Source of the DNA: Candidatus Latescibacterota bacterium
Lineage (GTDB): Bacteria > Latescibacterota > UBA2968
DNA: 64,000 nt
NCBI GenBank assembly: GCA_965208125.1
Contig: OZ242320.1
Location: 1,792,001 to 1,856,000, forward strand
Direction of reading: 5' to 3'
Part shown: positions 30,096 to 42,505 of the stretch, piece after piece
Layout: each line of letters starts with the position of its first letter
Numbering within the stretch: position 1 is the stretch's first letter
Position numbers and translations under genes: made by a program
The notes under the pieces: generated by a model
Told to the model about the DNA's origin: nothing
Database searches by the model: none
What the model saw: only the letters and a program-made list of their open reading frames with translations

Positions 30096-32306
30096 TCATC
30101 GCCAGGGAATAGCGGCGAAAAAACTTTTGATCTCCTCGTAACGGTCCAATCTTTTTTCGAGGGTCTCGATATCTTCTTGACTACCTCCAAAAGCATCTTT
30201 CATATCTTTGATATGGTTTTCGTACTGCGTATTAAGGTTCTCTGCTCCTTTCTGGAAAGCAACCAGTGTTTCCTTCCAGAAAGTATCGATATTTTTCTCT
30301 ATCATTGAAAGGACATCTTCTTTTTTAAATACATCCTTGATTTTTTTTGCTAAACGTCGTTCCCAACTGTCTCCAAAGAGCCAGGAAGACAAGGCACCCA
30401 TCGCAAGAGCTACCCCGATCGCCAGAGTAATTGGTCCTCCTAAGGCCGAGACAAGAGCAGCTGCCCCTCCCGCGCCTCCCGCGAAAGAGAATCCCAAAAC
30501 GGACAGCACACGAACCATTTTTGCGACTATTATATATCCACCCAGATTTCCCAATGTGGATGCCCAAGCACCAAGAGCACCAAGGGTACCAAGCCCTGCT
30601 AATCCTCCGAGAAATGCTCCTTTCGCATCGAATGGTATAGAAAATTCTTCTGCACCTTGATCCTGTGGTACTTCTAACAATCTGTCTTTTCTTATACTTC
30701 GCATGAAACCATCAATGAGATCTTTAATCTCATCAAGCAAATCACGCCGACAATCCTCTGTCCGGGATTGAATTTCTGCAAGGACATAAGCAGCGGCATG
30801 CGTCTCCGCTTTTTTTTTATCCCCTTCATAGCGATCTTTAATCATCTGTTCTATCTTCTCGACCGCAGTTTCGTCCTCAAAAATTTCTCGGAATTTTTCC
30901 AGTTCTCGGTATTTCAATTTGTTGATTTCCCCTTCTATACGCTCTACCTCGCGTTTATGTCCCTTCTTTCTATCAGGCTCCCCTTTTTTTAACCTTTCAT
31001 AGTGTTTTTTTGCTTTTTCCTTCTCATCCCTAATTTTTGCAAACTTGTCGATTTCCTGTGCGTAAAAGTCCTTTCCTTCATCCTTAAATTTGAGAATTTC
31101 TTCGTTTACGCTTTCTTTTTTAATCGGCGGTATTTTCTTCCCAAGTAAGCGTTTTAGATCCTGTTCCAGCCTTTTTCGTCTTCCTCGTATTTCCTGGTAA
31201 AAACTGAAAAAGCGAGCATGGACATGCTCATGCGTAATTGACTGTTCACGACTGCTTAGTTTGGGAAGAAGGTTGTCCTCAAAGTGTTTATAGAAATCCT
31301 CACTACCTCCTCTCAATATCTGATTCTCAAGTTGTTTTTTTGGGATTCCAGGATGAGCGTGCGTCCCAATGATGAAAAGATTGCCGAGCTTAGGAAAGTC
31401 ATCATAAATTTCTTCATACCGTGGAAGACCACGTAGCAAATCAGCGAGGTGTGTCAGATCTCCACCACCGAGAAATCCTTGAACGGGACAAAGATATAAT
31501 AAAATAGCTCCACGACTGCTTAACTGGCCAATAAGAGACTCATCTGTTATCCTGTCACCGTACCCAGGCAAATCTACCAGGACGCACGAGTGGAGTAACG
31601 GAGCATCGACAAAAGCCAAGACAGCGCCTTCTCCGCTGTTATCATTCCGACCTTTTAGAGTGGCATGCTTTTTAAGCGTATCCCAACTTCCAGCGAGGAT
31701 TCGATTGTCTGTACAATAATCTTCGACAGCCCATTTTTCATGCTCTGTAAAACCGGGTCCCATAAGCCACAAGTCTTCCTTGAACCATGAAGGACGATCA
31801 GAGATATGACGAATAAAGGTGGGGTACCTGGTGACCGGACGGTAGCCCGTTGGAAGCCGGCCTTCTCCCAAATAGAAATTACAGAAATGGGACTTGCCAG
31901 CATCAAAACGTCCGGTGAGTACGACCCAGGGTTTTTCTTTAAGAACAGTAACACGGTCTCGAAACTGTTCAATAGTTAGGCCAAATGACTCATCACCTAA
32001 CTCTTCTTTAGAATTAAGAAATCGGTCAATGTACTGTTCAAGTAGCTCCAAATCTTCTGTGAGGGATCCATATAAACGGTCGTCAAAGTCAAAGATAGTT
32101 TCTTTTTGGGCTGGTGGGAGGTCTGGATCTGGTACAAGATCGTCAATTGAGCATCCTATGGTATAAGCCCATTGTTTCAATAGATCAATAGGGATATCTC
32201 CGCTGGCCTCATATCTGGATACCCGGGCCTGAGTAATCTTAAGAGCTTCCGCAAGGTCCTTTTGCTTTAATCCCGATTCTTTTCGAAGGTCTGCTAGATT
32301 CTTCAT
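30096..32306 (-). CDS. XRE HTH fused to dynamin-like GTPase
   Basis: HTH (QKDLAEAL…QARVSRYE), G1 GRFDAGKS, G3 DLPG, G4-like THAH, coiled coil, Gly-rich hydrophobic hairpin. Confidence 0.8.
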   Translation of the reverse strand: MKNLADLRKESGLKQKDLAEALKITQARVSRYEASGDIPIDLLKQWAYTIGCSIDDLVPDPDLPPAQKETIFDFDDRLYGSLTEDLELLEQYIDRFLNSKEELGDESFGLTIEQFRDRVTVLKEKPWVVLTGRFDAGKSHFCNFYLGEGRLPTGYRPVTRYPTFIRHISDRPSWFKEDLWLMGPGFTEHEKWAVEDYCTDNRILAGSWDTLKKHATLKGRNDNSGEGAVLAFVDAPLLHSCVLVDLPGYGDRITDESLIGQLSSRGAILLYLCPVQGFLGGGDLTHLADLLRGLPRYEEIYDDFPKLGNLFIIGTHAHPGIPKKQLENQILRGGSEDFYKHFEDNLLPKLSSREQSITHEHVHARFFSFYQEIRGRRKRLEQDLKRLLGKKIPPIKKESVNEEILKFKDEGKDFYAQEIDKFAKIRDEKEKAKKHYERLKKGEPDRKKGHKREVERIEGEINKLKYRELEKFREIFEDETAVEKIEQMIKDRYEGDKKKAETHAAAYVLAEIQSRTEDCRRDLLDEIKDLIDGFMRSIRKDRLLEVPQDQGAEEFSIPFDAKGAFLGGLAGLGTLGALGAWASTLGNLGGYIIVAKMVRVLSVLGFSFAGGAGGAAALVSALGGPITLAIGVALAMGALSSWLFGDSWERRLAKKIKDVFKKEDVLSMIEKNIDTFWKETLVAFQKGAENLNTQYENHIKDMKDAFGGSQEDIETLEKRLDRYEEIKSFFAAIPWR

Positions 32307-32365
32307 AATTAAGTCTCCTTTTGGGTACGTTGTACCATCTGCGAAGATGGCACAACGTGGAAAAA

Positions 32366-32674
32366 TTACCTACCAGCCTTTCGACCACCACCGCCAGCTC
32401 TTTGGTTCAGTGGAGGATTATGCTGGACAATCTTGGCTTGCTCATGGACACGGCGAGTTGTAGATGTACTTCTGCCATCCGCTCTCTGCCAGGCAAAAGT
32501 ATGGGTCTCACGCGGTGCCAGGCCCGTACGACGATGTTCTCCAATTCTGCGATTCAGGTTCACAGTTTCCCCAAAGTAATCCACCTTGCCACTTTCATTA
32601 TTGATGGCACGATAGAATCCGGGGGCATTGGGCGGCTCTTGCGTAGAGGGCCGCCCGCGTTTAGTAATGGCCAT
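32366..32674 (-). CDS. Small standalone GIY-YIG-like protein
   Basis: AGGAGG RBS; PGFY…YFGET.NLNRRIGEH…HE…NPPLN. Confidence 0.75.
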   Translation of the reverse strand: MAITKRGRPSTQEPPNAPGFYRAINNESGKVDYFGETVNLNRRIGEHRRTGLAPRETHTFAWQRADGRSTSTTRRVHEQAKIVQHNPPLNQRAGGGGRKAGR

Positions 32675-32705
32675 AAAAGACCTCCTAAAAAAGGATTGAG
32701 ATTGT

Positions 32706-32740
32706 GGGCTACCAGTTGCTCCGGTAGCCCGTGACTTACC
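32706..32740 (-). repeat. Conserved hairpin after peptide B
   Basis: Minus strand GGUAAGUCAC-GGGCUACCGG-AGCAA-CUGGUAGCCC. Confidence 0.8.
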
Positions 32741-32745
32741 GGCAG

Positions 32746-32835
32746 TTATACCGCCATCGCGGCGAAGTGCTGTCCGACGGTGATCAAAACCGTAGCGATG
32801 ACGCTGTACAACACTTTGAGCAGTAGTGCGTGCAT
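32746..32835 (-). CDS. Small hydrophobic peptide B (29 aa) MHALLLKVLYSVIATVLITVGQHFAAMAV
   Basis: AAGGAG RBS; 15/29 identical and ungapped to peptide A. Confidence 0.75.
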   Translation of the reverse strand: MHALLLKVLYSVIATVLITVGQHFAAMAV

Positions 32836-32897
32836 AGCTTTCTCCTTTTGGTTACGCTGGCTGTCCGAACAGGAAGAGCCAGAAAAGATGAGAGTTA

Positions 32898-32933
32898 TGG
32901 GCTACCAGTTTCTCCAGTAGCCCACGACTTACC
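32898..32933 (-). repeat. Conserved hairpin after peptide A
   Basis: Minus strand GGUAAGUCG-UGGGCUACUGG-AGAAA-CUGGUAGCCCA. Confidence 0.8.
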
Positions 32934-32934
32934 G

Positions 32935-33039
32935 CTACTGTGGCGGACGTCTATCTGCCATCGACGCGACGTGCTGCCCTATGGCCACTATGGCCGCGGC
33001 GAGAGCACTATACAGCACTTTTTTCCCAAGTGCTTTCAT
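32935..33039 (-). CDS. Small amphipathic peptide A (34 aa) MKALGKKVLYSALAAAIVAIGQHVASMADRRPPQ
   Basis: AAGGAGG RBS; homologous to peptide B. Confidence 0.75.
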   Translation of the reverse strand: MKALGKKVLYSALAAAIVAIGQHVASMADRRPPQ

Positions 33040-33103
33040 GATTTTCCTCCTTTGCTATGCCCGCTACGCATTTCTGCGGGAAAAATGAAATGTGATTTCC
33101 CAT

Positions 33104-33132
33104 AAAGTAATATTGAAATTTTATTTTGTCAA
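33104..33132 (-). promoter_or_regulatory. sigma70-type promoter for the peptide/GIY-YIG/dynamin operon
   Basis: TTGACA-17 bp-TACTTT on minus strand with AT-rich upstream tract. Confidence 0.65.
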
Positions 33133-33431
33133 GTTATTTTTATTAATAATTGAGAAAAATTTATTGATTTAATCCTTAAAGCATAATCCCTACTTAATAT
33201 AAACGATAATTGATGGTTAATCGGATTACGGTGCGCCCACAATGTATTTTCCAATCACAAAACCCCGCGTTATTCGTTTCAGAGGGCGCACTCTTATTGA
33301 TGTTATGCCCGCCCGCAGGTCTTCAAAAGATATGCGACACCCCAAAGCGCAAGGATGTCTAAATGTCTGCGGGCGGTCAGCACTGGTGTTGGCCGTTGGG
33401 TTCAGGCTGTTGCTTCTTTCAGGAGGTTGTC

Positions 33432-34251
33432 ATGTCAGGTTCGTCGTTTGTGGTTCCGTCGGCTGTGTTCTCGGGGTTGTCCGCTCTGTCTGGCCCCGTG
33501 GCTGTTGTGGGGTCGCGTTCTTTGCCGTCTGCGGCGTTGCTTTCGGTTGCTCGGTTCGGTCGTTGGGTGGGTCGTTCTCGTCCGCTCTGGTCCGGTGGGG
33601 CGTTGGGCGTTGATAGCGCTGCGTCTGCTGGTGCTCTGGCGCAGGGTGGTCAGGTGTGCTGGTGGTTGCCGGCTGGGTTTGGCGAGTTGGCCGCTGGGTC
33701 TTCGTCGCCTGTTGTTCGTGGCCCGGGTGGGGTCTTTCCCGTCTCGGCGCCCCGTCAGTTGGCTCGTTCTGTTCGGTGTGTTGCCTGGTCGGGTGGGCCG
33801 TCTTCCGCTTCTGTGCCTTTCAGCGAGCGGTTGTTCCAGCGGTCGGTTTCGCTTCTTCTCTCGCTTCGTGGTGCGGGTGGTGGGTCTGTGGTCTGCTTCA
33901 TCTCTCAGGTTGCTCTTTCGGCTCGGCGTGGTGGGTCCTGGTTCACTGTCCGTCGTGCTTTGGGGCTTGGGTTCCGGCCTGGCCGCGTCGTTGTTCGTTG
34001 TGCTCGTTGGGCCTGGCGGTTTTTCGCTTTTGTCGCCGGGGGCTGTGGTGTCCGCCTTTTTCGCTCCCTCTTCTTCTCAGCAGTCTCTCTTCACTCCCGA
34101 GCAGCTCGTGGGTGCGCGTCCGTCTCTCTTCCCGCCGGTGTCTCCTTCTGGGTCCCGTCGCGATCCGCATGGCGAGCGGTTTGATTCTCAGTCCGTGTGT
34201 GGGCCGTTGTCTCAGGCGTTCTGGCTCGGTTTCCGGTTCAGGTCTGGTTAG
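33432..34251 (+). CDS. Adenine-depleted DprA/SLOG-like protein, apparent +1 frameshift near 33985
   Basis: AGGAGGT RBS; VAVVGSR, SGGALGVD, RLFQRS, GSWFTVRRA; ~27 A in 820 nt. Confidence 0.65.
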
Positions 34252-34418
34252 GGTTTCTGGCCCTTCGGCCGCGGTCCATGTGTCGCATGTATGGCGATAA
34301 TTATGCGTGCATTTGTCGCCTTCTATACGTCAGTTGTCCACAAAAAGATACCGCGCTCCCGATAGCAGGAACGCGGCACTGAGTTGTTTTAGGGAATTAT
34401 ATCCAATGTTAGCCAATA

Positions 34419-35230
34419 TCAAAACTGTGATTCTTTTGCTTTTTTGGTTCTTTCAGCTTCCCTTTTTTCGCTTTGGGAACTCCTATGCTGCCAATAGCCT
34501 TGAAAACGGTATTCAAGTTCTAATTGGTTGAAATCTCCAACTCTTTTAAAGGAGAGGCGAATTTCTTTAAGTTGCCATTTGTTATCCGCATCAAAATCGG
34601 ATTTTCTCCAAAGTTCACTATCGGAATCTTGCGCCACGCGTACCTGTTCAGCCTGATCAAAAATAAACATACCCGGTATCTTCAGCCCGAACCCCTCTTT
34701 ACCATACTTCCTTCTTATACTAATCGTAAGAATTAAGTTTGCCTGGTCTATTGCCTGCTCAAGCTGTCGCAGAGTCGGGAAAAGGATTTCCCTCCTACTA
34801 CTGCTTACTGTTGGAGCGGCATCCCTGCCGCGATCACCCAATTTCGAGAACCTAATGCAAGATTTCTATATCTGATTAGTATTAGAATGTCGCGTATTTC
34901 CCAATACTTCAATCTTGGGTTATCAATCTCCCATTCCAAACGGACGGCCAGAAGTCCACTCTTTGGCAAAATTTCAAAATTTATGTACTTGGCATCCTTT
35001 GGCATTTTGGGATTTCGGACATAAAAAGATTCAAGCCCGAATACCGTCGTGCCCCCGAGGTTCTCAATAGTGCCAAAGTCCAAAGCGCGAATTTCATCAA
35101 TAGTCATCCCCTTCTTGAGTCCAAAAATATCTGCGTCTCTGGCGTCGCCATACGCCAGAGTGAACACACAGACCACCCAAATTGAAATTGTCCACGCAAG
35201 ACCTATACGTTTCAACAGTGAAACCTTCAT
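34419..35230 (-). pseudogene. Exported protein gene split by a 164-bp insertion
   Basis: Removing 34718-34881 joins the two ORFs in frame (…EIRDILI-RRKYGKEG…); signal peptide; FGLKKGMT. Confidence 0.7.
34718..34881. mobile_element. MITE-like insertion carrying two REP-like palindromes
   Basis: Ends TACTAATC/GATTAGTA; internal palindromes at 34774-34798 and 34810-34834. Confidence 0.7.
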
Positions 35231-35556
35231 AGCTATTTCTCTTATTCGCATAGCGATTCCAACCACGTCCATGCCAAGCATCTTTCCAGATAGACGGTAT
35301 CAAATGTGGCATTTGATGGCAGTGCGCTTGGTCGGGTAAGCCACACCTTGCAGTGTGCCGTGTTCTATTCGATCACCTCAACCGCCATTTCGATCATTGC
35401 GTCACCTGTTGGCATCCTCCACCACAGTCCCACCGTCAGCCCTTGGGCATTTTTCTGTTCGGTTGCCTTGATATACCAGTCCGAAGGCGTCAAGGCGACG
35501 TGGGCGGAATTACCCGCTTTATTGCACTTTTTGGGGATAACCCGCCTGGAGCTTCA

Positions 35557-36714
35557 TCAACTTGTCCAACCGGCAGGATCACTATCGGATAGACAGGAGA
35601 AAAACTGGACATGTCCGCAGTGGTCACAGACAAAGACCTTAAAGGATTGGCTTCCCTTTGGTTCCAACCCAAAATTGCTTATAGCAATGGGATTTCCTCT
35701 ATTTATAGCCAGTTTGTAAATCCCGAAACCACAAACTCTGCATGGGCGACGTACAGTATCGCTCATTCGATCACCGCCAAGTTTCAAGACTTCGAGGAGG
35801 ACGTCAATCTCGTAGAGCAAGATCCTCGCATTTTTGAGGCAATCCCGTTCACGTTCAACAATGCATTTATCAAGCAAACCATTGAGAAGTCTCATTTCAG
35901 GTCTGCCGGGGAACATTGCCTCAATATTGTTCCCTGGTTCGCGGTGATACCAAAGATGTAAAAACGGCTTGCCCGATACTATTGCCCAGATGACTTTACC
36001 CAATGAAAATACATCGAAACTGGGGTTTATATCTTCTATGCGCCTGCGCATAGCCCATGGTGGCATCCAGTCGGTACTTCCCACGTTTTCAAGGGTGCCA
36101 CTGATTCTCGTATGTCCTGGATCCTCAAAGAACACGAGACCAAAGTCGCCGAGTACCAATTGTTCGTTCTCATCTACAAAAATGTTCTCTGGCTTGATGT
36201 CGCGATGAACGATTTGCTTTTCGTGTAAGGAGGCAACCCCTTCAACGATCGGTCGAATTGCAGTGAGGGCATGTTTTACTTGTCCGGTGTACCGATCAGA
36301 CCTGTTTTTCAAGGTTCCTTTTGGATAGTATTTCGAGACGAACCACTTTTCCTCAAAGTTGAGATCCACAACCTCCAGAAGGTTTGGGTGGTCGGCTTGC
36401 TGCATAGCTTCCAACTCGCGTTTTAGCCGTTCCTCTGCATCATCGAAATTCTGGGCTTCATCCGGCGAGTGTAGAATTTTGAGCGCACCGTGATTCACAG
36501 GGTTTTCAGCCTGCACAATTTCGGAAATGATTTTTCGCATCAACTTCATTGCCTTCGGGGCATTGTATAGTTGACCGGCCTGTTGGACTGCCTCAAATAA
36601 AGTATCCGCAAGGTCGTCCAAAGGGACCTCATGCTTATCCAAGACACGGATGACCTTCCCCTGTCCACCTTCACCAATCTCTTCAATTTCCTCCCAACGA
36701 TTTTCGTATTTCAT
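35557..36714 (-). CDS. Hanks-type Ser/Thr kinase with C-terminal zinc ribbon
   Basis: GEGGQG, ALK, HRDIKPEN, DFG, DVFSLG; CRVC…CDHC. Confidence 0.9.
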   Translation of the reverse strand: MKYENRWEEIEEIGEGGQGKVIRVLDKHEVPLDDLADTLFEAVQQAGQLYNAPKAMKLMRKIISEIVQAENPVNHGALKILHSPDEAQNFDDAEERLKRELEAMQQADHPNLLEVVDLNFEEKWFVSKYYPKGTLKNRSDRYTGQVKHALTAIRPIVEGVASLHEKQIVHRDIKPENIFVDENEQLVLGDFGLVFFEDPGHTRISGTLENVGSTDWMPPWAMRRRIEDINPSFDVFSLGKVIWAIVSGKPFLHLWYHREPGNNIEAMFPGRPEMRLLNGLLDKCIVERERDCLKNARILLYEIDVLLEVLKLGGDRMSDTVRRPCRVCGFGIYKLAINRGNPIAISNFGLEPKGSQSFKVFVCDHCGHVQFFSCLSDSDPAGWTS

Positions 36715-39287: not shown

Positions 39288-40394
39288 TTAGTCGCTCCGT
39301 TGTATTCTTTCGAGAAACCCGATATGCACCTGCTTCACTTGATCCAAAAATTCGCTAAATTCGCTCACATTCATTTCCTTAAGATTCGCAGTATCAATTG
39401 ATCCGACGGTGCATTCATTACCCCTCCTCATTTGAACTTTTCCGGTACAAAGTCCTTCTTGTTGGCGGGCTTCTTTGAAGCGATTTCGGTATTCATGTAC
39501 CACATCATAGTTTTCCCCGGCGTTGTTAAGGGAAATCATCAGCCGCAGCGGTTTCCATGAATCAAGTCGCCAATATAGATGCTTTGAGAACCAGTACTGC
39601 GTCCACGCACTACCACCCACATTTTTCCCCCTACCCAAGCCGTTCCAAATCCACTCCCAGTCTGGCTCCCTGGACAATTTGTCGGAGATAAAGTGCTCCC
39701 ATTCGCCATCCACGTTTCTCAGCACCTTACGGAGCTTCCGCATGAACTCCCATTGCACATAGTCTTGGTCAAGGTCCCATATCTCTTGGGCCTCGGCTCT
39801 CTTTTGTATCTTGTCGTTCAGATATTCTGTATACTGGCGCAGAATCTCGTTTTCCCGAATTGCATCCTGATGACAGTCGAGGAAATTTCTCAGATCTTTC
39901 GCTGCAAACAAGAAATATTTGTTCTTCTTAACGGCCCATCTTTCATCATTGAACACATACCCAGTCTTGAAATAGACAGGCTTAATTAGATCTTCTTTCT
40001 CTGCATCCTGACTGATAGAATCCAGATATCGTGCCAGTTGGTTACTGTGATCCCGCGTGTTTATTTTGTCTTCAATGAGGAAAGAGACCTTCTTCCCATC
40101 TACTCTGGCCTGGAAGTACACATCGATCTGATTGTACTGAGTGTAGGGCTTTCCCACATCGCTCACTTCGCAAGGCCCATTGTAGGGAGGAGCTATTCGC
40201 TTGCCGTCGGGGTCCAACACTGGAATGTCCCTGGTCCCATTCAATGCGCCTGCTCGAAAGAGCACGCGAACGAATGCCAACCCACACTTCTGGAGATTGC
40301 CAGTGGCCTCGGTGGCACAAGCAACAAGCCAGCAGATAAATGCGTCCTGCGAGAGTTCGCTTGTAGCGTAAGAGAAGATATTAGGAGTACTCAT
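39288..40394 (-). CDS. PD-(D/E)XK nuclease family protein
   Basis: NIFSYATSELSQDAFICWL; ID…IEDKI…HSNQLARY. Confidence 0.8.
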   Translation of the reverse strand: MSTPNIFSYATSELSQDAFICWLVACATEATGNLQKCGLAFVRVLFRAGALNGTRDIPVLDPDGKRIAPPYNGPCEVSDVGKPYTQYNQIDVYFQARVDGKKVSFLIEDKINTRDHSNQLARYLDSISQDAEKEDLIKPVYFKTGYVFNDERWAVKKNKYFLFAAKDLRNFLDCHQDAIRENEILRQYTEYLNDKIQKRAEAQEIWDLDQDYVQWEFMRKLRKVLRNVDGEWEHFISDKLSREPDWEWIWNGLGRGKNVGGSAWTQYWFSKHLYWRLDSWKPLRLMISLNNAGENYDVVHEYRNRFKEARQQEGLCTGKVQMRRGNECTVGSIDTANLKEMNVSEFSEFLDQVKQVHIGFLERIQRSD

Positions 40395-40579
40395 GAAACC
40401 CTCCCTATTGTCGATGTCTTTCTGCGGATGATTGTCTTGGCAAAGGGCGACCGCCATCGCTCTTTACTGCCCAACGCTTATAAGCCTGAAAAACGGCAAA
40501 GTTCAGTATGAAAAATATCTATACCTTTTATAAATCAATACTTCGGACAGTTTTAGGTGTAGAGATTCTTTGAAATCAA

Positions 40580-41434: not shown

Positions 41435-41936
41435 TATATTCTCCTTTTTAGGTCGGGGTTATCCCCTGCCTAATGGTCAAGGGATGTTCTTGAGTTCCTC
41501 CGCGAGTTCCACAAGAGTATTCGGTACATTTTCATCTCCTCCAAGCACTTCTTCCCCTAGGTCGAAATTAGGATTTTTGAATAATTGAAGACCGATCAAA
41601 AAATGTCCGAACCATTAATAAATAAAATAGGCTACACCTATATCAATCAAGAACGTGATCTTTTCAACATTCGCATTATATAGTATGCCCCAACCCTCGC
41701 CAGCAGAACCCTGATCGCTTCCCTATACCCTCCCTAATAAAAACACCTGAATCCTGTCCTCGAAAGAAGCCCCCAACCCCACAAAACCTCTGTCGCTTCT
41801 CGATCATCTTACCGGTGGAAATTCCCAAATCCTTTTCTTATATGAAGCCCCCAACCCTTGCCAGCAAAACAAGAAGCACCAGCTACCCCACCCCATGCCG
41901 ATCTTACCCGTTGAGGGCAATCTTCGGCGAGAATTT

Positions 41937-42106
41937 ACGGTCACTGTCAAGAGGGGCAAGAACGTTCAAAACACAACAAAGTCCGGCGTCTTCGTGCTCC
42001 AAGCGGGGGCGCCATTTTTTTCGGTTCCCTTACGCCCCACCACCCCCCAACCCCAGGCTACGCCCAAAAAAAACGCCGCGGTGCTGCCACTCTTGACAGT
42101 GACCGT
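41937..42106. repeat. Long inverted repeat (21/22-bp arms) containing TTGACA
   Basis: ACGGTCACTGTCAAGAGGGGCA…TGCCACTCTTGACAGTGACCGT; inner T7/A8 arms also pair. Confidence 0.8.
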
Positions 42107-42262
42107 GTGTAAAAAGTGTATTTAAAATCTGTCTGGAAAAGGCAGAACACCATAAAGGCAGATGGCTAATCCGTCAGTCGCCCTTCTTTGCTTTCCAATC
42201 GGGAAGTGAGGAAGGGCGTTTTCGTTGCTGGCGGATGGCTGTCATTTCACAGGAGGTTGGTT

Positions 42263-42505
42263 ATGCAGTCTGTCCGTTGTCTTACCGTTGGTCGTCGTTC
42301 TCGCCGGTGCTATATCGATCTTTCGACCCGTGATATGTACGGCAAGGTCGTTTATGACAAGATGAAGTCTGTTGATAATTCTTGTCCATTGCTCAGACTC
42401 TCTGGGCATTGGCTGGCTGAGGCTGGCTTTGAGATGGGCGATAAGGTGAAGGTTGAGGTCTCAAAAGGTCAGTTGGTTATCAAATTGAAAGGAGGATCGG
42501 CATGA
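42263..42505 (+). CDS. SymE-family type I toxin-like protein
   Basis: AGGAGGT RBS; PLLRLSGHWLAEAGFEMGDKVKVEVSKGQLVI. Confidence 0.8.
   Translation: MQSVRCLTVGRRSRRCYIDLSTRDMYGKVVYDKMKSVDNSCPLLRLSGHWLAEAGFEMGDKVKVEVSKGQLVIKLKGGSA

Follow-up and report, generated by a model that had tools for sequence, protein, structure and literature searches.

A rare DprA/SLOG-like gene family written almost without adenine, and its structured leader RNA

Why would a protein-coding gene be written almost without one of the four nucleotides, and what keeps it so? The question is raised by a gene for a DprA/SLOG-like protein at positions 33432–34251 (plus strand) of a 64,000-nt stretch of DNA from Candidatus Latescibacterota bacterium (assembly GCA_965208125.1, contig OZ242320.1, positions 1,792,001 to 1,856,000 of the forward strand; hereafter the window). 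A preliminary description made from the sequence alone had pointed to the scarcity of adenine in this gene and had offered several possible causes. Here we follow the gene through its homologues, its protein product and the RNA that precedes it, and weigh what may have excluded adenine.

Adenine exclusion in the window gene and in its family

The 820-nt gene contains 27 A, 224 C, 294 G and 275 T, that is 3.3% A, and includes two A-free runs (33438–33612, 175 nt, and 33946–34078, 133 nt). The hand count of about 27 A and the extent of the first run in the preliminary description were exact. With A making up 0.244 of the genome, 27 or fewer A among 820 nucleotides have a binomial probability of 4e-63, and the lowest A fraction of any other 800-nt segment of the window is 0.196. 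The AT skew lies between -0.8 and -0.9 over the A-poor segment and is ordinary on either side, the flanks being normal or AT-rich as first described. When the whole 5.75-Mb single-contig genome was scanned in 300-nt windows, only two segments fell under 7% A, both on the same strand, and no segment fell under this limit for C, G or T. The second A-poor segment is a truncated paralogue located 99 kb upstream (C1:1726146–1726977) and ~93% identical to the window copy. An assembly artefact, which had been named beforehand as a possible refutation, is rejected by the presence of two copies in a single-contig genome and of homologues in independent metagenome-assembled genomes, metagenomes and protein collections; related sequence is also present in public runs from 11 studies.

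The start codon (ATG 33432) is preceded by the Shine-Dalgarno (SD) sequence GGAGG at 33422–33426, in line with the strong ribosome-binding site noted at the outset. The claim that 33432–34251 is a gene held as far as coding is concerned; the single reading frame did not, since a 1-nt insertion lies near 33983. The ATG frame ends early at TGA 34182–34184 and the terminal TAG (34249–34251) sits in the +1 frame. Window-copy counts after frame correction join these two frames. With the frames joined, the 27 A are distributed 7/19/1 on codon positions 1/2/3, as expected from the statement that they occupy the first two positions, while a single-frame reading splits them 5/10/12 and does not bear it out. 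The translation of the ATG frame contains no Lys, Asn or Tyr, as had been reported. The first A downstream of the stop codon, at 34278, marks the end of the A-poor zone.

The same depletion was found in all 14 homologous loci for which DNA is available, where the gene contains 0.2–8.3% A against 17–27% in the flanks and the edges are sharp at every locus. In a distant member with ~50% identity (L023), a single A occurs in 507 nt. The G content of the genes is 36–41%. Codon choice follows the same line: the family uses CAG 84 times and CAA 7 times, GAG 45 and GAA once, AAG 15 and AAA twice, and codons ending in A are nearly unused (GGA for 1 of 328 Gly, CGA 1/211, GTA 4/249), while neighbouring genes use A-ending codons freely. 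This codon usage shows a pressure that acts on the nucleotide.

The pressure is visible in the protein as well. Ten amino acids have codons free of A (F, L, S, C, W, P, R, V, A and G), and these make up 84–99% of the residues in the family, compared with a mean of 57% ± 5% in the genome's long open reading frames (ORFs); one member, P0038, takes 99% of its residues from these ten and contains only one Asp. Almost no K, N, Y, D or E is present, I, T and M are avoided as well, and the residual A's are nearly confined to the second position of Q, E, D and H codons that are conserved. The replacements can be followed in two distant relatives whose composition is normal (P0043 and P0046, 32–36% identity) and which align over the whole core: their I, T, E, N, Y and K correspond mostly to V/L, S, S/A/G, S/G, W/L/F and G/R/S, respectively, in the A-poor members. 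Since synonymous sites are saturated and still A-free, the comparison indicates that adenine exclusion is actively maintained in the family. The depletion was thus rightly called strand-specific and non-random, being conserved in homologues on top of a constraint on the protein.

The few A's that remain obey a context rule. Where the next codon starts with A, the four-fold degenerate third base before it is C in 57 cases, T in 6, G in 1 and A in 3, against 18.7 C, 14.9 T and 30.4 G expected from the genes' own third-position usage (p 5e-25, a value that overstates independence because the counts come from related sequences of roughly five lineages). The preference for C before A has the same direction in every lineage possessing such codons, as judged from per-locus counts. 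At the same position, 17 flanking genes of the same loci show C 301, G 317, T 126 and A 139. At free sites GA is thus avoided ~50-fold relative to CA (1/64 against 317/744 in the controls, over the C, G and T classes). Third-position A shows the same order, with 47/816 for NCA, 8/486 for NTA and 2/539 for NGA where the controls give 18%, 10% and 20%. The stop codon is TAG in 11 of 11 copies, TGA and TAA never being used. Hence GA is the most avoided dinucleotide and UA the next, and CA, usually as CAG, is tolerated.

The encoded protein and its leader RNA

A word-indexed homologue search returned 29 proteins, some of them partial, down to 54% identity over most of their length, and an exhaustive scan of 1.84 billion representatives gave 23 matches. 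With so few matches in so large a collection, the protein family is rare. In an alignment of 18 members, the motifs GSR and WSGGALGxD are invariant, as are several R, W and G residues, and the C-terminal motif (G)RRDPHGERYDSQTVSGPLSQAFWLGL is conserved. Among the 11 coding sequences for which DNA was available, the ratio of nonsynonymous to synonymous divergence (dN/dS) is 0.15–0.35 in 54 of 55 pairs, the odd pair giving 0.44 on 2 differences, and dS exceeds 1 between the main lineages. These values and the conserved motifs rule out low-complexity or non-coding sequence; by every sign in the alignments the protein gene is real and under purifying selection.

The affiliation of the product with DprA/SLOG-like proteins, proposed early on from motifs, is borne out by fold comparison, the profile matches being partial. 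The Pfam family PF02481 (DNA_processg_A) scores the family at 18–34 bits for a gathering threshold of 29.6 bits; the window protein (27.0 bits, E 3e-6) and P0001 from the sister genome G011 (23.3 bits) lie under this threshold, which is exceeded only by the relatives P0018 (33.7 bits) and P0046 (31.1 bits). Every family member matches only profile positions ~45–110 of ~212, as against 12–202 for the canonical DprA P0047, and the winged helix DprA_WH found by Pfam in P0047 has no match in the family. The NCBIfam dprA equivalog TIGR00732 gave 13–34 bits in 6 of 6 proteins, under its cut-off of 191.15. Over ~55–70 residues only, the PADLOC model PsyrA matches 6 of 6 proteins (E 1.8e-10 to 1.3e-5) and the ShosA model 5 of 6 (E 4.6e-8 to 0.043). 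An AlphaFold2 model built on the family alignment has a core (residues 10–80 and 125–210) with a predicted local distance difference test score mostly of 75–95, for an overall mean of 66. Its best Foldseek matches in the PDB are Helicobacter pylori DprA structures (4ljk/5mll, probability 1.00, E 5.5e-4 to 1e-3, template-modelling score 0.37–0.49), followed by LOG-like proteins, PpnN and ShosA (8zva). The model thus predicts that the product, which is very basic and encoded by ~270 codons, is a DprA/SLOG-fold protein and not a canonical DprA.

With the DprA/Smf recombination mediators (PF02481, SLOG superfamily) the family has in common an N-terminal Rossmann core bearing GSR and SGGAxGxD, and the DprA of H. 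pylori and of Streptococcus pneumoniae are among the best structural matches. Unlike them it has no DprA_WH or SAM domain, carries its own C-terminal motif (RRDPHGERY...SQAFWLGL), is extremely basic and uses a reduced alphabet. ShosA and PsyrA, the type IV antitoxins of the ShosTA and PsyrTA defence systems, are likewise short stand-alone DprA-like proteins whose PADLOC models match the family. The match covers ~60 residues only, and no phosphoribosyltransferase (PRTase; ShosT) or RecQ-like (PsyrT) toxin gene was found beside the family gene among 40 neighbour proteins scanned.

Upstream of the gene lies a leader of ~240 nt that is conserved in nine loci of both main lineages and is followed by local hairpins that occupy the ~65 nt before the start codon. 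RNAalifold folds it into a rod of nested helices closed by a helix P1, in which GCCCGCCCGCAGG pairs with CCTGCGGGCGG, and which ends in a long apical hairpin with textbook compensatory changes. The consensus structure comprises 81 pairs with 96.1% of cells paired. Compensatory (double) changes were found in 20 of the 81 pairs, compared with 9.3 ± 1.9 in shuffled alignments (none of 500 reached 20) and 2–7 when the partners were slid. Many G.U pairs occur in the 3' helices, which places the structure on the sense-strand RNA. Rfam gave no match with E <= 1 in the window interval 32000–35500 and, in seven loci with a full leader or related upstream sequence, only two chance-level miRNA matches elsewhere; promoter scans revealed nothing conserved. 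The leader is a new, previously undescribed conserved structure, supported by covariation among only nine related sequences.

The adenine content of the leader changes along its length. It is 20–35% in the 5' half and 24–50% in the single-stranded junction after the apex, then drops to 3–11% from there to the start codon. Together with the position of the first A after the stop codon (34278), this profile shows that the A-poor zone runs from the leader apex to the GC-rich hairpin ~25 nt past the stop, and is essentially the translation-competent unit with protected ends.

The A-poor message is not unusually structured as a whole. The minimum free energy per nucleotide is no lower than that of own shuffles in G011 (-0.381 against -0.412 ± 0.009), L015 (-0.548 against -0.547) and L023 (-0.316 against -0.339), and is ~1.4 standard deviations lower in L018 (-0.538 against -0.525 ± 0.009). 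Compared with GC-matched balanced random sequence, G011 and L023 are less stable, and L015 (-0.548 against -0.511) and L018 (-0.538 against -0.491) more so. A hyper-structured mRNA as the reason for the composition was hence rejected.

The window copy, all of whose parts lie on the plus strand, has lost some of these features. A genus-conserved segment at 33233–33308 (88–95% identity to G011, G013, G017 and copy A) precedes the leader and may represent a promoter or the beginning of the transcript. The small ORF that it contains (MYFPITKPRV...) was considered and rejected as a partner gene, being conserved only in the genus and not alignable in the distant (metagenome) loci. The remnant of the leader 5' strand at 33309–33353, of normal A content, comprises the 5' arm of P1 (GCCCGCCCGCAGG) together with the 5' strands of the helices that follow, assigned from motif position, leader alignment A3 and covariation. 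It is followed at 33354–33365 by the junction of a copy-specific deletion of ~130–150 nt that removed the inner helices and the apical hairpin (P7), as seen against the full leader of G011 and against alignment A3; an RNA-library contig has ~130 extra bases exactly at this junction. The 3' part of the leader (33366–33431; 5 A in 66 nt) carries the P1 3' arm CTGCGGGCGG, two local hairpins and the SD sequence.

The first frame of the coding sequence extends over ~183 codons (33432–33982; 14 A in 551 nt) and encodes the SLOG/DprA-like Rossmann core with GSR and WSGGALGVD, as assigned by Pfam, family alignment A2 and the fold. The 1-nt insertion with its neighbouring substitutions (33983–33985) shifts the frame relative to the intact orthologue, as shown by the copy A alignment, the G011 ORF and the RNA-library contig X17, whose alignment leaves out one base at 33983. 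Beyond it, the C-terminal region (33986–34251) is read in the +1 frame only, carries the tail motif ...SGSRRDPHGERFDSQSVCGPLSQAFWLGF... kept in the family, and ends with the TAG. An A-free 3' tail (34252–34277) contains the hairpin GGCC-CTTC-GGCC (34259–34270). Homology between the window copy and the paralogue begins in DNA of normal composition ~200 nt 5' of the ATG and reaches ~30 nt past the TAG, stopping at ~34279–34283; the paralogue itself carries a deletion from the leader apical hairpin through about codon 35. The sister genome G011 has the intact unit, a single frame of 271 codons from an MSGSSF... start to the same TAG. With its insertion and its leader deletion, the window copy is degenerate. 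The frameshift, the second genomic copy and the conserved structured leader had all been missed by the preliminary description.

Every stop codon, whether read forward or as its reverse complement, contains an A on the sense strand, and the A-free stretches of 33363–34277 are for this reason open in all six frames on both strands. Long spurious ORFs result, e.g. 33355–34251, 33656–34300 and 33943–34170 (minus strand), and gene callers will mis-annotate A-free loci of this kind. An overlapping second gene in the other open frames is not supported, since the synonymous sites of frame 1 vary freely (dS > 1) and leave no room for a second constrained frame.

What excludes adenine

Among the causes first listed for this gene, an mRNA resistant to an A-directed RNase fits best: the A-poor zone follows the boundaries of the translation unit, the remaining A's avoid GA and UA, and broken copies regain A. 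Our tentative first choice, held with rather less than even confidence, is that the mature mRNA is under selection to evade an agent that attacks adenines in single-stranded RNA, with a preference for GA and UA. This putative activity, an endoribonuclease or else an RNA-modifying toxin or defence effector, would recognise unpaired A in single-stranded RNA, preferably in GA and UA. The A-poor, translation-competent part of the transcript would offer it no substrate and would remain open to translation when ordinary messages are put out of action; the leader junction, A-rich and single-stranded, and the A-bearing 3' flank would be expendable, and the flanking helices would protect the remaining ends. 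We regard as doubtful, if conceivable, the more specific proposal of a natural "toxin-proof" message, in which a DprA-like repair or antitoxin protein would be the sole product still made under an adenine-directed (GA/UA) shutdown; the A-rich leader junction could then be the place where the same activity matures or unmasks the message.

A parallel exists in the engineered single-protein production system in which messages without ACA are expressed together with MazF; they too lack the recognition element of a toxin, and reportedly remain translated while other mRNAs are destroyed. The engineered case removes one trinucleotide by synonymous changes, whereas the present family is natural, avoids a whole nucleotide, has an altered amino-acid alphabet and bears structured flanks. 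As in a message free of a toxin's sites, A makes up 0.2–8% of the gene for 17–27% of its flanks, and GA at free sites was counted in 1 of 64 cases where the controls have 317 of 744.

Activities with specificities of this kind have been described. CmdT ADP-ribosylates the N6 of A in GA dinucleotides of single-stranded but not double-stranded RNA (PMC11618068), Pyrococcus furiosus Csx1 cleaves single-stranded RNA after adenosines (PMC4712672), and HigB requires an A in the A-site codon (PMC5027501). These specificities (GA in single-stranded RNA, after A, A in the codon) match what the family avoids, unpaired A and above all GA. Of markers for such effectors only Cas10/Cmr2 was tested in carrier genomes, and it does not co-occur with the gene. 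As for the product, ShosA binds single-stranded DNA and RecA and counteracts a toxin that interferes with purine metabolism (PMC11961720; PMC12961424). By analogy with ShosA and PsyrA, a probable role of the DprA-like protein is to bind single-stranded nucleic acid and to assist repair or recovery of the RecA type.

Several points weigh against an escape from RNA-directed attack. No cognate toxin or RNase was identified, and no neighbour is conserved across distant loci. Type III CRISPR effectors (Csx1/Csm6) were considered as the agent and rejected: Cas10/Cmr2, the only marker profiled, occurs in G017 but in neither G000 nor G011, i.e. in 1 of 3 carriers of the genus, and also in 8 of 18 non-carriers, so that no association with the gene appears. 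Many copies are broken (both in the window's genome G000, and those of G017, G013, L013/L014 and the frameshifted L020), which argues that the gene is often dispensable or costly, something not predicted by an essential rescue role. The SD sequence contains GA and would leave one site to a GA-directed agent unless the SD hairpin were to protect it. The tolerance of CA could partly reflect mutational input (CG to CA) and not the specificity of an agent. Contigs with relatives of leader and gene were found in four sponge metatranscriptome libraries from three studies, but in contigs the ends of transcripts are not visible and DNA carry-over is possible. To these are added the relatedness of the sequences behind the context counts, mentioned above, and the small numbers in the contrast between broken and intact copies given below.

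A message made immune to its own product would meet the boundary and context evidence equally well. The SLOG-like protein would itself attack adenines or adenylates, for instance as an N-glycosidase, or bind and occlude A-containing RNA, and an A-less mRNA would keep its synthesis going. Fold neighbours indeed include the nucleotide N-glycosidases LOG and PpnN, long structured leaders are typical of tightly repressed toxin messages, and the frequent inactivation of the gene is what would be seen for a costly or toxic one. The motifs are nevertheless of the DprA type (GSR, SGGAxGxD), no LOG-type PGGxGTxxE motif was seen by eye in alignment A2, DprA-type proteins are not known to be catalytic, and no antitoxin partner is conserved beside the gene. 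We consider such a toxin unlikely.

An economy of nucleotides is distinctly unlikely. The gene would remain transcribable when ATP is depleted by ATP-degrading effectors or by purine-disrupting toxins such as ShosT, elongation proceeding without ATP, and the absence of A from the whole coding sequence and the proximal 5' untranslated region would suit this purpose. DprA-like ShosA does counter a purine-disrupting toxin (PMC11961720). However, with 20–35% A in the leader 5' half and 24–50% in the junction, the polymerase must use ATP before it reaches the A-free zone; the other purine, G, makes up 36–41% of the gene and translation needs ATP anyway; and no dinucleotide effect is predicted, yet GA is avoided ~50-fold relative to CA. 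The earlier suggestion of an mRNA made under ATP depletion fits poorly on the same two grounds, the leader and the context effect.

Adenine-directed hypermutation, also among the causes first suggested, would act through A-mutagenic reverse transcription copied back onto the gene, as in diversity-generating retroelements (DGRs), or through an adenine deaminase or glycosylase on the non-template strand. DGRs share with the family the adenine specificity, a sharply bounded segment and an end near a GC-rich hairpin, the latter resembling the end of a DGR target. The deletion in G013 takes out almost exactly the A-poor segment, and the surviving A's lie mainly at conserved non-synonymous positions, as a mutator checked by selection on the protein would leave them. 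The reverse transcriptase profile RVT_1 (PF00078) nevertheless had 0 matches in 4 of 4 carrier genomes (G000, G011, G017 and G078, 91–98% complete), where positive controls matched, and no A-bearing template repeat was found: the only other copy in the window's genome is equally A-poor and differs mostly among C, G and T. The family shows loss of A and not variability, and its codon usage is an equilibrium of C-, G- and T-ending codons with no A-to-G footprint. Moreover, lineage-specific changes to A amount to 16 of 66 in two clearly broken copies and 5 of 51 in intact ones, a contrast of small counts among related sequences (Fisher p 0.053), and to 2 of 12 in the frameshifted window copy. This is weak evidence that broken copies regain A, as relaxed selection predicts. 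A mutator would also have to ride a 1.2-kb module into unrelated genomes with no conserved neighbour. Selection on the mature mRNA is therefore favoured over a mutator, which we hold to be very unlikely.

A cause at the DNA level is highly improbable. A T-free template would avoid T-directed lesions (ultraviolet (UV) dimers, or the ADP-ribosyl-thymine made by DarT on single-stranded DNA) that block transcription of a repair gene; the product is DprA-like and plausibly linked to repair, and the strongly avoided GA of the coding strand corresponds to the dimer-forming TC of the template. The tolerated CAG, however, gives template CT, which forms dimers too, GG (template CC) is abundant, and the leader 5' half, transcribed first, has much AA on the coding strand. 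From the sponge metatranscriptome matches, the carriers that belong to the window's genus seem to be sponge symbionts, which weakens the rationale based on UV. Hardly credible, finally, is an avoidance of the NAN-box amino acids (K, N, Q, H, E, D, Y) that would let the protein be made despite anticodon nucleases: the near absence of K, N, Y, D and E and the 84–99% of residues from ten A-free-encodable amino acids agree with it, but it leaves unexplained the near-zero A at synonymous third positions (GGA 1/328, CGA 1/211), the A-poor 5' untranslated region and 3' tail, the context effect at codon junctions and the avoidance of I, T and M, whose codons are decoded by other tRNAs, so that the proposed escape from tRNA-Lys anticodon nucleases fails on the synonymous positions and the untranslated flanks.

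ATP sparing, tRNA supply and template lesions each fail at least one of three observations (a leader that is A-rich and transcribed first, A-poor untranslated regions and synonymous sites, and the GA/UA context), and an RNA-directed agent remains. Should selection against RNA-directed attack be the cause, this would be the first natural gene family found to exclude a whole nucleotide from its message over saturating synonymous divergence; full-text searches of the literature returned no relevant report of an adenine-free or adenine-devoid gene or mRNA. Conflict over RNA could then reshape the amino-acid alphabet of a folded protein besides its codon choice, and the resulting natural, evolved reduced-alphabet Rossmann-fold protein would bear on protein design and on early alphabets. 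The combined signature of single-base exclusion, dinucleotide shielding and structured flanks could also serve to find other "hardened" messages and A-directed effectors. Even if the mechanism is wrong, the phenomenon is solid and needs an explanation.

Distribution, broken copies and surroundings of the module

DNA matches were obtained in 5 of 41 relatives, G000 counted. A scan of 168 genomes of the phylum gave strong matches (E <= 7e-61) in four only, of which three belong to this genus and the fourth to a different family; the remaining 17 matches were weak and lay in the generic DprA motif region. Together with the state of the window copy, this shows the locus to be one degenerate copy of a module, made of leader and gene, that is rare and patchy in its distribution.

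The surroundings of the module vary. Neighbours are diverse and mostly chromosomal, including glycosidases and histidine kinases, and in G011 an integrase and a replication-initiator-like gene. No protein cluster besides the A-poor gene recurs across distant loci. Pfam scans of 40 neighbour proteins found no PRTase and no RecQ, and no relaxase or reverse transcriptase family match was obtained among the neighbours scanned. A plasmid or phage origin was rejected: the plasmid collection gave no DNA or protein match, and viral contigs gave none with the family profile, P0043 or P0046. In the ESM Atlas the nearest entries are small phage DprA-like clusters (scores 0.84–0.88), which we take as a lead only. 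The notion of an early-expressed mobile-element gene near oriT, relaxase or reverse transcriptase genes was thus not upheld, the plasmid and viral collections being without match and the neighbours unrelated.

The copies are broken in different ways. In G017 (L012, 2566–7935), the leader is interrupted, between the region of P7 and the 3' arm of P1, by a 5.4-kb insertion bearing six ORFs on the minus strand, and the coding sequence is truncated after ~140 codons. In the metagenomic loci L013 and L014, an AT-rich insertion of ~100 nt between leader and coding sequence replaces the SD sequence and the start codon, the rest being intact. In G013 (L005, 1500–1760), the segment lost in a deletion between CGG microhomologies coincides almost exactly with the A-poor zone, so that the 5' half of the leader and the apical hairpin are joined to the 3' flank, and the remaining P1 arm is starting to decay.

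The setting of the window copy resembles a defence island, a point in favour of the proposed escape from an RNA-directed attack. PADLOC assigns a LeoBC-like helix-turn-helix dynamin (30096–32306, minus strand), a Ser/Thr kinase matching the models PD-T4-6, Stk2 and mad6 (35557–36714, minus strand) and a PD-(D/E)XK protein matching PDC-S26 (39288–40457, minus strand). Further downstream, at 41815–42505 on the plus strand, a 93-aa ORF is followed by a 105-aa ORF with a SymE_toxin domain. At the G011 locus, the block at 34.4–41.8 kb is absent between the module and this SymE-like pair, and the SymE-like block is 93% identical between the two G000 loci. The pair was considered as a partner of the module and rejected; it lies 2.3–8.4 kb downstream in 4 of 4 genus loci but is absent from the available flanks of the distant loci.

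Two small hydrophobic paralogous ORFs of 29 and 34 aa (32746–32835 and 32935–33039, both on the minus strand), situated immediately upstream of the module, share the pattern KVLYS..A..I..GQH.A.MA and look like type I toxin-like membrane peptides; an SD sequence precedes the second. Elsewhere in the window, the longest G-free run of the genome (17224–17349, 126 nt) is composed of ~7 tandem copies of the 16-nt unit cacttcatccttcaca. It is an ordinary tandem repeat in the intergenic region preceding a 671-aa ORF and has no relation to the A-poor gene.

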